From positions 1 to 32,559 of the IMG/VR virus record IMGVR_UViG_2675903654_000020: 32,559 nt of DNA; one strand, written 5' to 3'. Under the pieces are notes generated by a model. That model saw nothing but the letters and a program-made list of their open reading frames with translations. It ran no database searches and was not told where the DNA came from. Source of the DNA: a virus (taxonomy: Duplodnaviria; Heunggongvirae; Uroviricota; Caudoviricetes). Both the position numbers and the translations under genes were made by a program. Below, one piece after another: positions 3,289 to 7,567 of the stretch (within the stretch, counting starts at the first letter, position 1; the number at the start of each line of letters is the position of its first letter).

Positions 3289-3584
3289 GGCGCCCCCCTA
3301 ACTCTAAGTAATGGATTGATAAGACTGGAAAAACATATATATCTCCTTTTATACACGTTTGCTATTTTTATTGCAATGCTCCACCTGTGGAGGACCAGGA
3401 AGGGCGATATTCTGATGAGTCTTTAACTGATTGAATTCGCTCCGATGCGGGACTTCCCACATCGGGAGAACATTACCACTAGGGGTAAAAACGATTTGCG
3501 GGAAAAGGATAGTTAAGTAGAATTGCTGCGGGTGCTTGAGGCTATCTGTCTCAGGCATGCCACCAAAGGCAGATAGAGAAAAGC

Positions 3585-3650
3585 CCCAGTTAACATTACG
3601 CGTCCTGCAAGACGCTTAACATTAATCTGAGGCCAATTTCATGCCAGACA
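3585..3650 (-). ncRNA. predicted Sok-like antisense RNA of the hok locus (position approximate)
   Basis: Inferred from Hok/Sok family architecture (antisense RNA overlapping the mok start region); boundaries not resolved from sequence. Confidence 0.25.
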
Positions 3651-3853
3651 CATGTAGGTTAGCCTCTTACGTGCCGAAAGGCAAGGAGAAGCAGGCTATG
3701 AAGCAGCAAAAGGCGATGTTAATCGCCCTGATCGTCATCTGTTTAACCGTCATAGTGACGGCACTGGTAACGAGGAAAGACCTCTGCGAGGTACGAATCC
3801 GAACCGGCCAGACGGAGGTCGCTGTCTTCACAGCTTACGAACCTGAGGAGTAA
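3641..3853 (+). CDS. Mok-like overlapping reading frame of the hok locus
   Basis: ATG 3641 in frame with hok and ending at the same stop, as in hok/mok loci. Confidence 0.4.
   Translation: MPDTCRLASYVPKGKEKQAMKQQKAMLIALIVICLTVIVTALVTRKDLCEVRIRTGQTEVAVFTAYEPEE
3698..3853 (+). CDS. hokD: Hok-family type I toxin (51 aa), HokD/RelF-like
   Basis: Protein MKQQKAMLIALIVICLTVIVTALVTRKDLCEVRIRTGQTEVAVFTAYEPEE matches my recollection of HokD; single TM helix; leader homologous to hok mRNA; intrinsic terminator downstream. Confidence 0.8.
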   Translation: MKQQKAMLIALIVICLTVIVTALVTRKDLCEVRIRTGQTEVAVFTAYEPEE

Positions 3854-5012: not shown

Positions 5013-5302
5013 TGGTGGATTTACGTAAAGCGGCGCGGGGGCAGATGTGCACCGTCAGAATCCCTGGATACTGCAATCACAATCCTGAAACGTCTGTGCT
5101 GGCGCATTACCGACTGGCGGGAACGTGTGGAACGGCGATAAAACCACACGATATGCAGGCAGCGATTGCCTGTAGCTCGTGCCACGATTTAATCGACGGG
5201 CGGGTAAAAACCAGCGATTACACCAAAGAAGAATTACGCCTGATGCATGCAGAAGGTGTTTTTCGCACACAAGAAATCTGGAGAAAGGAAGGTTATTTAT
5301 GA
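5012..5302 (+). CDS. Cys-rich putative zinc-binding protein (96 aa)
   Basis: ATG overlaps previous stop (TAATG); Cys clusters CxxxxxxxxC and CxxC-like (CSSCH). Confidence 0.5.
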   Translation: MVDLRKAARGQMCTVRIPGYCNHNPETSVLAHYRLAGTCGTAIKPHDMQAAIACSSCHDLIDGRVKTSDYTKEELRLMHAEGVFRTQEIWRKEGYL

Positions 5303-5853
5303 TTTACCCAACGAATACAGGAAAAAGCGGAGAACACCTTCGTCTCACCACGCTGGAAAGTGTCTGGATTCAGGGGAAACTGCGTATGTGGGGGCGCTGG
5401 TCGTATATTGGTGGCGGTAAGACGGGGAATATGTTTAACCAGATGTTGACCTCTAAAAAGCTGACAAAAACGGCAATTAACGAGGCGCTCCGGAGGATGA
5501 AAAAAGCAGGGCTGGACAAACCTGAACTTGAGGCTTTTTTGCGGGATATGATCAACGGCAAGCAAAAAAGCTGGCTGGTGCATTGTACTGATGCAGAGGC
5601 GTTATGCATTGATCGGGTGATTAGTGAAGTGCTGGCAGAACACCCAGGATTGATTTGTATCCTCCGGCAACGATATGAAGGGAGGGGGATGACTAAGCGA
5701 AAAATGGCTGAATTGCTGAATGGTTCACACCCTGAGTGGTGTTACGCCACGTGCCGTAATCGCATAGATGCGTGGTTGAAAATGGCAGAGTTTATGCTCT
5801 ATCTGCCGATGCGTGATGCATTCTCTTCCGGGGATCTAAAAACCGTCTGTTGA
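5299..5853 (+). CDS. late-gene antiterminator Q-like protein (184 aa)
   Basis: ATG 5299 with AAGGAAGG RBS, overlapping previous stop (ATGA); immediately followed by a near-consensus promoter and a terminator, the classic Q-pR'-tR' arrangement; family assignment by position and recollection, not by search. Confidence 0.55.
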   Translation: MIYPTNTGKSGEHLRLTTLESVWIQGKLRMWGRWSYIGGGKTGNMFNQMLTSKKLTKTAINEALRRMKKAGLDKPELEAFLRDMINGKQKSWLVHCTDAEALCIDRVISEVLAEHPGLICILRQRYEGRGMTKRKMAELLNGSHPEWCYATCRNRIDAWLKMAEFMLYLPMRDAFSSGDLKTVC

Positions 5854-5879
5854 CTCAATCTGTTATCCGGGGCTATATT
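5850..5879 (+). promoter_or_regulatory. candidate late promoter pR' (TTGACT -35, 18-bp spacer, TATATT -10)
   Basis: -35 TTGACT at 5850-5855 overlapping the Q stop codon, -10 TATATT at 5874-5879. Confidence 0.5.
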
Positions 5880-5940
5880 CCTCACGCGCCAGCAAAATCT
5901 GGCGTCGGGATTGGCGTCCTGGATAGAGACCGCGACAGAT

Positions 5941-5963
5941 ACACGCCGCGAGCGTGTTTTTTA
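5941..5963 (+). terminator. intrinsic terminator downstream of the candidate late promoter (tR'-like)
   Basis: Stem ACACGC / GCGTGT with 5-nt loop followed by TTTTTT. Confidence 0.55.
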
Positions 5964-6123
5964 TTGTCGTATGCACGCGCACATCTGAATTATGGTGGGC
6001 TGTGTGGGGGCGGAGAGATCCGCGCCGGTCGGTTTCCCGGTTACGCCAACCCTGCACAGTTCACCACCAGACGATTGGCGTCGTCGGTGGTGAGTTATTA
6101 AGAAACCACCAGAGGGCGTCATT

Positions 6124-6735
6124 ATGACAACTCAAATTTCTGTTGAAACTCTCTCCCCTATCACCCATAACCAGATTCCTGTTATTACCACCGAACTTTT
6201 GGCGCAGCTTTACGGCACTGAGCCGGTGCGTATTCGCCAGAATCATCATGAGAACAAAGCACGCTTCGTTGAAGGGAAACACTTTTTCAAAGTTGTTGGT
6301 AATGACCTTAAAGAATTGCGGGTAGCTTTAAACTACTCACAAAATTTGCGGGTTACTTTAAGTAACTCACAAAATTTGCAACCATCTTTAAGAGGGTTAC
6401 AAATTTCCCCGAAAGCCCGCTCCCTTATCCTCTGGACAGAACGAGGCGCAGCCCGTCACGCCAAAATGCTCGAAACCGATCAGGCGTGGGATGTGTTCGA
6501 AAAACTGGAAGACTGCTATTTCAGACAAAAGGATCTGTCAGCGCCAGCTTCATGCCAGAAAAGTTACGACACGCGAGTTCTCTGTTATCAGCGAGGCGGT
6601 GTCACTGTTTCCACAATTCAGTTGCGGGATGATGATATTGTTATTTCCCTTGAGTCATGGCTGGAACTGGCGAGAGCCAATGGTTGGTTTGTTGTTCGCA
6701 GAGATAAACTGGTGGAAAGGCTGATGCAGCTTTAA
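6124..6735 (+). CDS. ORF6N-domain (Bro-N/antirepressor-like) protein
   Basis: N-terminal ORF6N-like region (IPVITTELLAQLYGTEPVRIRQNHHENKARFVEGKHFFKV) and conserved LILWTERGAARHAKMLETDQAWDVFEKLE segment; ATG with AGAGGG RBS. Confidence 0.65.
   Translation: MTTQISVETLSPITHNQIPVITTELLAQLYGTEPVRIRQNHHENKARFVEGKHFFKVVGNDLKELRVALNYSQNLRVTLSNSQNLQPSLRGLQISPKARSLILWTERGAARHAKMLETDQAWDVFEKLEDCYFRQKDLSAPASCQKSYDTRVLCYQRGGVTVSTIQLRDDDIVISLESWLELARANGWFVVRRDKLVERLMQL
6318..6377 (+). repeat. two tandem 30-bp units (25/30 identical) inside the ORF6N gene, with a degenerate third copy to about 6406
   Basis: Units 6318-6347 and 6348-6377; each contains a near-palindrome (for example GTTAC-TTTAA-GTAAC); in frame, encoding a 10-aa repeat. 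Confidence 0.6.
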
Positions 6736-6830
6736 AAAAGTTCTTGCAATTTTAGCCATAAACTGCTTCAATTCCGGTACGCTTCGCAAAGCTGTATCGC
6801 GAGGCGAATCAAGCGCATGAACTTTACCAG

Positions 6831-6859
6831 AACCCGCCATTGAGCGGGTTTTGTTGTTT
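6831..6859 (+). terminator. intrinsic terminator after the ORF6N gene
   Basis: Stem CCCGC / GCGGG with CATTGA loop followed by a T-rich tract. Confidence 0.55.
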
Positions 6860-7082
6860 CTGACGGATAGAAAAATGAAATAGCTAAATAAAAAGAATGC
6901 ATTGGATGCCATATATTGGCAACGTGACGACAGCGTTAATCTGGTCGGGCTCCCATGGCGACGTAGTGAGGGAGAGGAAGCGTAAAGCATCACTGAGTTA
7001 CGGTTGGCACCCGGTTTAACGCGTAAGTAGCCTGATAAAGAGATAGTGCACCGCGGCACTCACAGCGGCAACGATTAACTGA

Positions 7083-7107
7083 CCTCGGCATTTGCCGGGG
7101 TTTTTTT
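7083..7107 (+). terminator. strong intrinsic terminator upstream of the lysis genes
   Basis: 7-bp GC-rich stem (CCTCGGC / GCCGGGG) with 4-nt loop followed by 7 T. Confidence 0.65.
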
Positions 7108-7207
7108 ATTTAAGGCCGCAGACAGGCCCATTTAGTGCAACGCCTTTCCCCGTTTCCGCTCCTGGAATATTCGGGGATTTTTTATTCCCTCAATTTGCAC
7201 CCGCGAT

Positions 7208-7567
7208 ATGTGCGAGGTGAGAGATGATGAAATGCCTCATAACCCAAATACCTGGCCGGACTGGCTGGAGTTGTTTCAGAGCTGGTGGCGTGGAGACACA
7301 CCGCTGGGTGCAGTGATTATGTCGATCGTTATGGCTGGTTTGCGCATCGCCTATTTTGGCGGTGGTGGGGGCTGGAAACGAAAAACGCTTGAGATTTTGC
7401 TCTGTGGTGCCCTGACGCTGACCTTTGCATCCGCGCTTGAGTATGTCGGATGGCCTAAATCACTTTCTGTTGCCATTGGTGGTGGGGTGGGGCTGATTGG
7501 TGTTGATGCTATTCGTGGTGCGGCAATGAGGGTCATCGGTAACAAGTTCGGTGCCCATAAGGAGTAA
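7208..7567 (+). CDS. phage holin, class I-like (3 predicted TM helices), possible dual start
   Basis: Three hydrophobic segments and a charged C-terminus; in-frame ATGs at 7208 and 7232 (the latter with GAGGTGA RBS); directly upstream of the endolysin. Confidence 0.7.
   Translation: MCEVRDDEMPHNPNTWPDWLELFQSWWRGDTPLGAVIMSIVMAGLRIAYFGGGGGWKRKTLEILLCGALTLTFASALEYVGWPKSLSVAIGGGVGLIGVDAIRGAAMRVIGNKFGAHKE

Follow-up and report, generated by a model that had tools for sequence, protein, structure and literature searches.

The region downstream of a Q-like gene

This analysis concerns the DNA that follows a gene for a Q-like antiterminator in IMG/VR virus record IMGVR_UViG_2675903654_000020, of which a stretch of 32,559 nucleotides (nt) was examined (the window, to which all positions refer). 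Downstream of the Q-like gene lie, in order, a promoter and an intrinsic terminator, a C4-type antisense RNA, an anti-repressor gene (ant), a second unit with the layout of a promoter and terminator, a further terminator and a holin gene (Table 1). A preliminary description had taken the first promoter to be pR', the transcribed region after it to be a Q-utilisation site and the terminator at 5941-5963 to be tR', such that polymerase modified by Q would continue into ant and the late operon. By the families and pairing of its RNAs, the segment 5850-5963 belongs instead to a known anti-repressor switch of the C4 type, as its PisrK/IsrK front end. The most likely Q-dependent checkpoint is the unit at 6744-6859. 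The window is a new instance of a known cassette, situated beside an uncharacterised Q that resembles the Q protein of bacteriophage 21 (Q21).

The individual elements that had been described are nonetheless present. The Q-like open reading frame (ORF) occupies 5299-5853, with an ATG start, a TGA stop and 184 codons. The hexamers TTGACT, on the Q stop codon, and TATATT, 18 nt further on, match the consensus at 10 of 12 positions, and the hairpin ACACGC-CGCGA-GCGTGT (5941-5957) is followed by TTTTTT (5958-5963). Three further terminators also exist, at 6828-6853 with a T-rich tail, at 7081-7102 with a run of seven T and at 24896-24915 with TTTT. The first of these, which had been listed at 6831-6859 as one of several terminators that would need read-through, is probably the real tR'.

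Table 1. Features of the window between the Q-like gene and the holin gene.
Feature	Position	Strand	Basis or remark
Q-like gene, 184 aa, DUF1133 family	ATG 5299 to TGA 5851-5853	+	ORF, Pfam, fold
PisrK-type promoter: TTGACT 5850-5855, 18-nt spacer, TATATT 5874-5879	5850-5879	+	hexamer conservation, activity of the Gifsy-1 homologue
IsrK-like RNA, 77 nt: hairpin 1, hairpin 2 (b1 in loop), a1, intrinsic terminator 5941-5963	5886-5962	+	Rfam, fold
Site b1, TTGGCGT	5911-5917	+	IsrK hairpin 2 loop
Site a1, GAGACCG	5926-5932	+	centre of IsrK
C4-type antisense RNA, equivalent to STnc1160; two inner hairpins within a long closing stem	5988-6071	+	Rfam, fold, covariation
Site a', CGGTTTC	6030-6036	+	C4 hairpin 2 loop
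Site b', ACGCCAA	6043-6049	+	single-stranded in C4
Site b2, TTGGCGT	6075-6081	+	after C4, on ant mRNA
Site a2, GAAACC	6102-6107	+	5 nt before the ant Shine-Dalgarno sequence GAGGG 6112-6116
ant, ORF6N-domain anti-repressor gene (AnrP equivalent)	6124-6735	+	Pfam ORF6N, E=2.5e-19
Candidate pR': -35 TTGCAA 6744-6749, -10 TCAATT 6768-6773	6744-6773	+	positional homology
Alternative -10 of candidate pR': TTCAAT, preceded by TGc	6767-6772	+	sequence
Conserved transcribed element GCTTCGCAAAGC-TGTATC-GCGAGGC; candidate pause or Q-loading element	6781-6805	+	motif conservation
Candidate tR', intrinsic terminator	6828-6859	+	fold, z=-3.0
Further strong terminator (intrinsic), ahead of the holin gene at 7208-7567 (PF05106)	7081-7109	+	hairpin and seven T

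The promoter and terminator adjoining Q lead an anti-repressor cassette

A scan with Rfam models at their curated thresholds returned three families in order on the + strand. The c4-a1b1 motif (RF03163) covers 5873-5925 (50.5 bits), its model starting at the -10 hexamer; isrK (RF01394) covers 5886-5962 with all 77 of its 77 model positions (75.5 bits, gathering score 50); and C4 antisense RNA (RF01695) covers 5988-6071 (66.7 bits, gathering score 45). RF01695 and RF03163 were defined by Weinberg et al. 2010 (PMC2864571). The C4 RNA of the window folds with a minimum free energy of -44.5 kcal/mol (z=-4.2). A transcription start (+1) at 5886 agrees with a primer used for cloning from prophage Gifsy-1 (ACGCCAGCAAAATCTG), and the published primers show that the leader of Gifsy-1 is near-identical to that of the window. 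What had been proposed as a Q-loaded late promoter with its Q-utilisation site and tR' is, in terms of these families, the leader of an IsrK/C4/anti-repressor cassette.

Between 4500 and 8500 the site at 5850-5879 is the sole sigma-70-like match, and the pattern alone is not beyond chance, one site having been found where shuffled sequences led us to expect 3.5. That the promoter is real is indicated instead by the conservation of its register and by experiments on its Gifsy-1 homologue. The -35 TTGAC and the -10 TATATT are kept in the same register in 16 of 19 independent leaders, despite upstream genes as different as ninE, ninB, a Q of the phage 82 family and a DUF1133 Q, and in phage VT2-Sakai, where alignment shows the upstream gene to be unrelated, the leader has its own TTGACG in that register. 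The isrK promoter of Gifsy-1 gave 280 versus 3 Miller units, and its product is a 77-nt RNA (PMC4825925). The short terminated transcript with partial read-through that had been predicted for the window has also been demonstrated in that homologue, in which some transcripts pass the IsrK terminator and enter orf45 and the anti-repressor gene anrP (PMC4825925). We note that the promoter spacer (5856-5873; alignment columns 10-27; ...GTTATCCGGGGC) is almost invariant after unrelated upstream genes. Since this conservation exceeds the need of a spacer, GTTATCCGGGGC may be an operator for a regulator of the cassette.

Covariation across 19 distinct leaders, drawn from E. coli, Salmonella, Shiga toxin (Stx) phages, phiV10, a Yersinia phage and a Klebsiella phage, supports pairing of the C4 RNA with targets on both sides of it. 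Sites b1 and b' form standard pairs in 100% of 133 alignment cells, with compensatory changes at four of the seven pairs and 30 double-change cells; none of 500 shuffles reached as high a value, and slid registers gave 13-41%. Sites b' and b2 are paired in 99.2% of 133 cells (29 double changes), and again no shuffle came as high. There are seven classes of b site (GGCGT, AGCAC, GGAAC, AGGAAC, TGCAC, GGTCT and CGAAC), and in the AGGAAC class a 1-nt insertion is coordinated at all three b sites. The a sites covary three ways and form at least nine classes, with a2 including the Shine-Dalgarno sequence or the AUG in several relatives. Calculated duplex energies were better for cognate than for non-cognate a sites (-12.5 versus -9.3 and -11.8 versus -8.2 kcal/mol) in a matrix that is noisy, conserved CCGG stems pairing too, and the a classes were taken from the listed sequences instead. 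The 3' end of C4, ...CACCACC, is conserved among leaders, which may reflect processing of C4 out of the primary transcript, a task of RNase P in P1.

With +1 at 5886, the positions mutated in Gifsy-1 (C18, G28, G31, A107, C159 and C162) are the same bases in the window, A107, of the first orf45 AUG, corresponding to ATG 5992. The compensatory pairs G28:C162 and G31:C159 of Gifsy-1 are contacts between b1 (TTGGCGT 5911-5917) and b' (ACGCCAA 6043-6049). We also note that a single prophage of Salmonella enterica strain s1 (locus L098) holds two IsrK/C4 cassettes, at 277-476 and 3575-3768, one in the nin region and one after Q, with different b classes (TGCAC and GGTCT).

An anti-repressor gene follows the leader in every context that we read, and homologues of ant in Stx phages are annotated Ant or anti-repressor. 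Positions 6317-6400, inside ant, consist of about 2.5 tandem copies of a 30-nt unit (ttgcgggtagctttaaactactcacaaaat / ttgcgggttactttaagtaactcacaaaat / ttgcaaccatctttaag...) that code for a repeated LRVxLxxSQN; weak minus-strand Rfam matches to these repeats (rivX, CbSR14) are probably spurious.

Distribution of the cassette

The unit at 5850-5963 is not coupled to Q. Phage records with the leader number 276 and those with a DUF1133 Q number 33, and the full order of Q, leader and ant was met in one; of 5426 complete E. coli genomes, 44 have the arrangement. Nine non-DUF1133 contexts were read, and there the cassette is located away from the Q of the phage concerned, except in loci of the Gifsy-1 type. 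In another seven annotated contexts, what precedes the leader is ninE, ninB, a tail-fibre region or a HigA region. Window positions 5863-6524 are 98.9% identical to a segment between ninE and roi in the nin region of VT2-Sakai; the Q of VT2-Sakai itself, a different one, lies about 2.5 kb further downstream and is followed by tRNA genes and stx2A.

The same independence is seen from the side of Q. Among 80 close relatives of the window's Q in IMG/VR, 31 combine a Q that matches residues 1-184 with the cassette, after which comes a segment with homology to window 6736-6862; in the remaining 49 the cassette is absent, and a Q that matches residues 1-176/177 and then has another tail is joined directly to the segment from window 6750 onwards. 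This segment is kept in all 29 of the cassette-bearing loci whose contig reaches past ant, and one pair of Salmonella loci differs by the cassette only, their downstream DNA being identical. The last eight codons of the window's Q differ from those of cassette-free relatives. The swapped tail starts past the last helix of the predicted structure (H149-176), so the fold of Q would be untouched by the exchange.

We put at about three in four the probability that the DNA from about 5850 to 6740 is a self-contained mobile anti-repressor cassette that lies between a Q21-like gene and that Q's own late promoter. The arrangement of the preliminary description, in which the promoter at 5850-5879 is pR', is by comparison very unlikely. 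It has in its favour that the promoter adjoins a genuine Q-type gene, with its -35 on the Q stop codon as in cassette-free relatives, that ten of twelve bases fit the consensus and that the terminator lies about 55-77 nt past the start. Moreover, a -10-like CAAAAT at 5893-5898 (+8 to +13), with A2 and T6 present, could pause sigma-70, and in Gifsy-1 the long transcript is increased 8-fold under conditions that also induce the antiterminator AntQ. However, all c4-a1b1 leaders have CAAAAT as the conserved loop of their hairpin 1, and the unit as a whole is part of a cassette that, in the contexts read, mostly lies away from Q. An identical unit follows Qs of the unrelated DUF1133 and PF06323 families, for which a shared binding element is implausible, and where the unit is missing Q adjoins the other unit, the one that is retained even when the cassette is there. 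In Gifsy-1, furthermore, there is basal read-through into anrP, at 280 Miller units (PMC4825925).

Three enterobacterial-type DUF1133 loci carry host labels from elsewhere, and the labels or assemblies may be contaminated or mis-assigned: L002 (PP818812.1), labelled Actinobacillus phage vB_Apl-pPE4, with a Q 93% identical to the window's and 90% identity of the DNA from Q to ant; L100 (JARKOR010000130.1), labelled a Candidatus Nanosynbacter metagenome-assembled genome, with a Q 89% identical; and L106 (NZ_JBQPOM010000001.1), labelled Vagococcus sp., with a Q 56% identical.

The Q-like protein resembles Q21

The main Pfam match of the Q-like protein is DUF1133 (E=6e-107, 355 bits). PF06530, the family of phage 21 Q, is matched at 26.2 bits against a gathering score of 26.0, a borderline value; the Q proteins of lambda and phage 82 belong to PF03589 and PF06323, respectively (Yin et al., PMC9388147). 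When the protein was compared with PDB sequences by phmmer, Q21 alone was matched (6P18, 6JNX; E=5e-4), in colinear N- and C-terminal stretches. An AlphaFold2 model built from an alignment of 28 diverse family members has a mean predicted local distance difference test (pLDDT) score of 68.5, residues 101-170 averaging 85-94 and the N-terminal half reaching moderate confidence only. In a Foldseek search of PDB with this model the top 11 matches were all phage 21 Q (probability 1.00, template-modelling score 0.63-0.68), and the first match other than Q21 had E>2. Given the Pfam, phmmer and Foldseek matches, the window's Q is, to judge from sequence and modelled fold, a Q21-like protein of the DUF1133 family. 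About 880 database clusters across Enterobacterales match this Q. RefSeq names the gene 'DUF1133 family protein' only and leaves the RNAs unmarked.

A candidate late promoter unit downstream of ant

By positional homology and motif conservation, 6744-6859 is the best candidate for pR', Q-loading region and tR'. The candidate promoter has an A-tract upstream and a predicted start at about 6779-6781, the transcribed element at 6781-6805 can be folded into an 8-bp 5' hairpin, and the predicted RNA, of about 80 nt, would comprise a 5' hairpin and a terminator hairpin. The combination of promoter, element and terminator is present in 49 of 49 cassette-free and in 29 of 29 evaluable cassette-bearing IMG/VR loci.

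The architecture extends well beyond close relatives. A profile-based scan with one genome per species gave 54 DUF1133 loci, from Escherichia to Proteus and Edwardsiella (Q identity 32-89%), which were anchored on the motif GCTTCGCGAAGC or its Klebsiella/Enterobacter variant GCTCGGGACG. The script for the motif returned 42 matches, three of which were judged spurious, and about 38 of the 54 loci have the motif or its variant, with a fixed distance of 7-10 nt between it and the -10. The common layout, at or after the Q stop, is a -35 (TTGACT, TTGACA, TTGCAA or TTGATT), a spacer of 16-18 nt, a -10 (TAAATT, TAGATT, TATAGT, TAGTAT or TATGAT), the motif and, after 20-50 nt, an intrinsic terminator; a terminator lies 35-82 nt past the motif in 37 of the 42 matches. 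A stringent promoter test (at least 9 of 12 matches together with A2 and T6 of the -10 hexamer) was passed in 16 of the 54 loci. In Serratia, Proteus, Providencia, Edwardsiella and Yersinia, promoters of the form TTGACT-16-TAAATT, TATAGT, TAGTAT or TATGAT directly follow DUF1133 genes. Among clades the Q stop codon slides over the -35, the -10 or the start region, and close relatives have at least five different terminator sequences after the same promoter region. Downstream of the unit, relatives have tRNA genes, toxin genes and lysis genes.

It might be argued that 6744-6859 is no promoter at all but only the 3' region of the early/Q operon with its terminator, or else an unrelated gene for a small RNA, that DUF1133 proteins are not antiterminators and that the late genes are expressed in some other way. 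Such an argument could draw on the -10 of the window's clade, which has no A at -11, on the listing of DUF1133 in RefSeq as a domain of unknown function and on a literature in which we found no experiment on a family member. We consider it extremely unlikely, because in Proteus, Providencia, Yersinia and Edwardsiella the homologous position has hexamers with 10 of 12 matches, the distance to the conserved transcribed motif is constant, and the terminators after it are several and interchangeable. The unit is also placed as known pR' regions are, upstream of tRNA, toxin cargo and lysis genes, the fold of Q matches Q21 and nothing else, and in a cassette-free relative no better promoter was found between Q and the holin gene.

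Three other assignments were considered and set aside. The sequence TTGGCT-18-TATATT in the 3' end of Q in a cassette-free relative was judged to be a chance match; it lies on conserved LYIPMR codons and is absent from the window. TTGAAT at the Q stop of Klebsiella KpF5 was not retained as a -35, alignment on the motif putting it at the -10 position. The unit after ant was not accepted as an isrJ homologue, for with E<=1 as the limit Rfam still gave no isrJ match, either in the window or among the DUF1133 loci of Salmonella.

The surroundings of the unit vary. Cassette-free relatives have tRNA genes (Thr, Gly) just past it (L089 4392-4542, L004 3397-3547 and L006 3249-3321), and in Rac-SA53 (L005) pertussis-like eplBA toxin genes take the same slot, a cargo position known from Stx phages; in the window no tRNA genes of the kind that lie downstream of Q in Stx phages were found. 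Between the candidate tR' and the holin gene the window has a 345-bp non-coding stretch (6863-7207) that ends in the terminator at 7081-7109. This stretch is absent from the phage collection, but in Citrobacter murliniae (L113) the DNA after the unit has a near-identical start; 6960-7108 shows no unusual fold (z=0.17). Upstream of Q by about 1.5 kb lies a hok/sok-type toxin-antitoxin module, in which an Rfam sok antitoxin RNA (3530-3703, 118 bits) overlaps a 70-aa Mok/Hok-like ORF (3641-3853); many related loci have this module at that distance from Q (L005, L087, L089, L094).

The parallel with Gifsy-1 and IsrJ

The antiterminator of Gifsy-1 is not a DUF1133 protein: AntQ starts with MNTQYLQ, as read from the published cloning primer, is 225 aa long and matches PF06323, the phage 82 family (E=6e-119). 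Searching IMG/VR with the published IsrJ probe sequence gave 76 loci, which include two configurations of antQ. In about 15 loci of the Gifsy-1 type the start of antQ lies 1570 nt upstream of the probe with isrK between them, and in about 21 cassette-free loci isrK is missing and the distance is 729 nt; the cassette accounts for the difference of 841 bp. The cassette-free loci have a TTGCAA-17-TACATT promoter on the 3' end of antQ, and the RNA predicted from there to the terminator, at about 74 nt, has the reported size of IsrJ. A cassette-free locus (L157) and one of the Gifsy-1 type (L160), both in IMG/VR, illustrate that IsrJ comes directly after antQ when the isrK cassette is absent. That IsrJ adjoins antQ in this way, with a promoter overlapping the antQ 3' end, suggests that IsrJ is the pR'-tR' transcript of AntQ. 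The same cassette thus separates Q from a family-specific short-RNA unit in two unrelated Q families, which makes a Q-specific site within the cassette implausible.

Discussion

We propose that the promoter at 5850-5879 would start transcription at about 5886 and that the majority of transcripts would end at 5941-5963, giving a 77-nt IsrK-type RNA, while a fraction continues into an RNA that comprises the C4-type antisense RNA (5988-6071) and the ant mRNA. Pairing of a' and b' of C4 with a2 and b2, upstream of the ant ribosome-binding site, would leave ant untranslated, and an excess of IsrK, which carries the copies a1 and b1, would compete for C4 or remodel the leader such that ant is translated. 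We infer this decoy role for IsrK from the position of its terminator, which after a1 and b1 frees those sites, and it fits the trans-activation seen in Gifsy-1, where IsrK supplied in trans raises anrP translation about 140-fold (PMC4825925). Ant would then inactivate the prophage repressor, early transcription would rise and Q would be made; AnrP of Gifsy-1 indeed induces its prophage, including the operon that contains antQ (PMC4825925). Q most likely loads onto RNA polymerase at 6744-6805, and the loaded polymerase would pass the terminators at 6828-6859, at 7081 and beyond and so reach the lysis and morphogenesis genes; the action of Q at 6744-6859 and the exact start site are deduced from the comparison of loci. 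Promoter activity, the 77-nt RNA, read-through, trans activation and the two compensatory pairs come from experiments in the homologue only, and for the window itself the scheme is built on family membership, the covariation of paired sites, the presence and absence of the cassette and the linkage of the downstream unit to Q.

Several observations weigh against this reading. Overexpression of IsrK in Gifsy-1 lifts the long transcript 8-fold, which possibly includes Q-mediated read-through of the IsrK terminator (PMC4825925), and AntQ, the Q that has been tested, is of a different family from DUF1133, for no protein of which did we find an antitermination experiment in the literature examined, where one paper gives the name. 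The ORF in the orf45 register (5992-6093) stops 30 nt before ant, so that the stop/start overlap of Gifsy-1 is not kept in frame; another frame (GTG 6002 or 5954 to TGA 6125-6127) does overlap ant as ATGA, an overlap that several relatives are without. At the candidate pR', an A at -11, which is near-essential, is missing from the -10 of the window's clade (TCAATT or TTCAAT), and members of the Klebsiella clade have either TAAATT or TGAATT. In 28 sequences RNAalifold found no family-wide structure in the transcribed motif, three of them being off register and the bulges differing, though individual clades can form a hairpin there with some compensatory changes. For Q binding and pausing within 6744-6805 there are candidates only, namely a semi-conserved spacer motif and the GCTTCGCAAAGC / GAAGCT / TGTATC element.

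In a mixed alternative the IsrK/C4 switch would operate as we describe and Q would, in addition, suppress the IsrK terminator without a dedicated site. Ant would then lead through derepression to Q and Q back to ant, in a positive feedback loop, and transcripts starting at 5886 would aid late expression. Overexpressed AntQ of Gifsy-1 disturbs termination genome-wide, the 8-fold rise of the long transcript was obtained with IsrK in trans, and in two Q families the cassette stands after Q and ahead of the late unit, which suggests that the position itself has been selected. On the other hand, loading of the Q21 type needs a promoter-proximal binding element and a paused complex that contains sigma, the global effect on termination is known from overexpression only and from a different Q family, and most of the cassette copies read in context work away from any Q. 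We judge this combination unlikely.

Taking the two Q families together, we tentatively entertain a broader possibility, one that we would stop short of calling probable: that the cassette has come to lie recurrently at the junction of Q and pR' in unrelated Q families, its own -35 replacing the end of Q and TTGCAA rebuilding pR'; that IsrJ and the RNA of about 80 nt predicted from 6780-6859 are the displaced pR'-tR' transcripts; and that DUF1133 is a fourth branch of Q proteins. If so, a repressor-inactivating switch would be wired directly upstream of the late-gene checkpoint. For DUF1133 Qs the loading site would, moreover, contain a palindrome or hairpin, conserved and placed at about +2 to +27; its use may differ mechanistically from that of the sites of lambda, 21 and 82.

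Among known systems the closest is the isrK locus of Gifsy-1, which has the same order of elements (antQ, PisrK, IsrK, orf45/STnc1160, anrP and isrJ; Hershko-Shalev et al. 2016, PMC4825925). The two share TTGAC(N)-18-TATATT at the Q stop, a 77-nt IsrK, the b1 sequence TTGGCGT, a C4-like RNA, an ORF6N anti-repressor, a short promoter-terminator unit before the lysis genes and the same numbering of mutated bases. They differ in Q (PF06323, phage 82 family, 225 aa in Gifsy-1; DUF1133, Q21-like, 184 aa in the window), in the class of the a sites (C4 loop TCGGTGAT in Gifsy-1, CGGTTTC in the window), in orf45 (45 codons overlapping anrP as opposed to 33 codons ending 30 nt upstream of ant) and in the downstream short-RNA unit, which is IsrJ in Gifsy-1 and an unrelated sequence in the window.

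The immI region of P1 and P7 (c4, icd, ant) is a second relative, in which the processed C4 antisense RNA is needed to keep ant silent (Citron and Schuster 1990, summarised in PMC8198154). Common to both are a cis-encoded antisense RNA with two exposed segments, paired targets a1/b1 and a2/b2, a downstream target beside the ribosome-binding site on the message through which the anti-repressor is produced, and specificity classes that arise by coordinated change of all copies. Unlike immI, the window has an intrinsic terminator between a1/b1 and C4, by which a1/b1 are freed as a small RNA, and it has no icd homologue, an anti-repressor of the ORF6N type and the setting of a lambdoid prophage in place of the P1 plasmid prophage. 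The CI RNA of P4 (seqA/seqC; a parallel cited in PMC4825925) is likewise a processed RNA from an untranslated leader that pairs upstream and downstream of itself. It brings about premature termination of transcription of the replication genes, whereas the targets in the window flank the ribosome-binding site of the anti-repressor gene, and the parallel is a structural one.

For the late-gene checkpoint the closest known arrangement is the lambdoid one, especially that of phage 21, with its Q, pR', sigma-dependent pause element and tR' (Yin et al. 2019, 2022; PMC9388147). The window shares the Q21-like fold and a promoter, a conserved promoter-proximal transcribed element and a terminator ahead of cargo and lysis genes, and in its relatives the 3' end of Q overlaps the promoter as in the lambdoid Q cassette. 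In contrast to phage 21, 0.9 kb of foreign cassette separates Q from the unit, the -10 is non-canonical and the protein is filed as DUF1133.

These findings bear on how such loci are annotated, in that a promoter and terminator right after a Q gene are not safely pR' and tR'; here the real checkpoint is probably 0.9 kb downstream. They also offer an explanation of IsrK: it is the a1/b1 targets of a C4-type antisense RNA, released as a separate copy. The specificity classes, at least seven for b and at least nine for a, could help in designing orthogonal RNA switches, or in predicting where prophages that share a host would cross-induce each other. For the large Q21-like family the comparison offers a concrete pR'-like unit, and two leads emerge from it: this conserved unit of the DUF1133 Q proteins, and the recurrent insertion of the anti-repressor cassette at the junction of Q and pR'.

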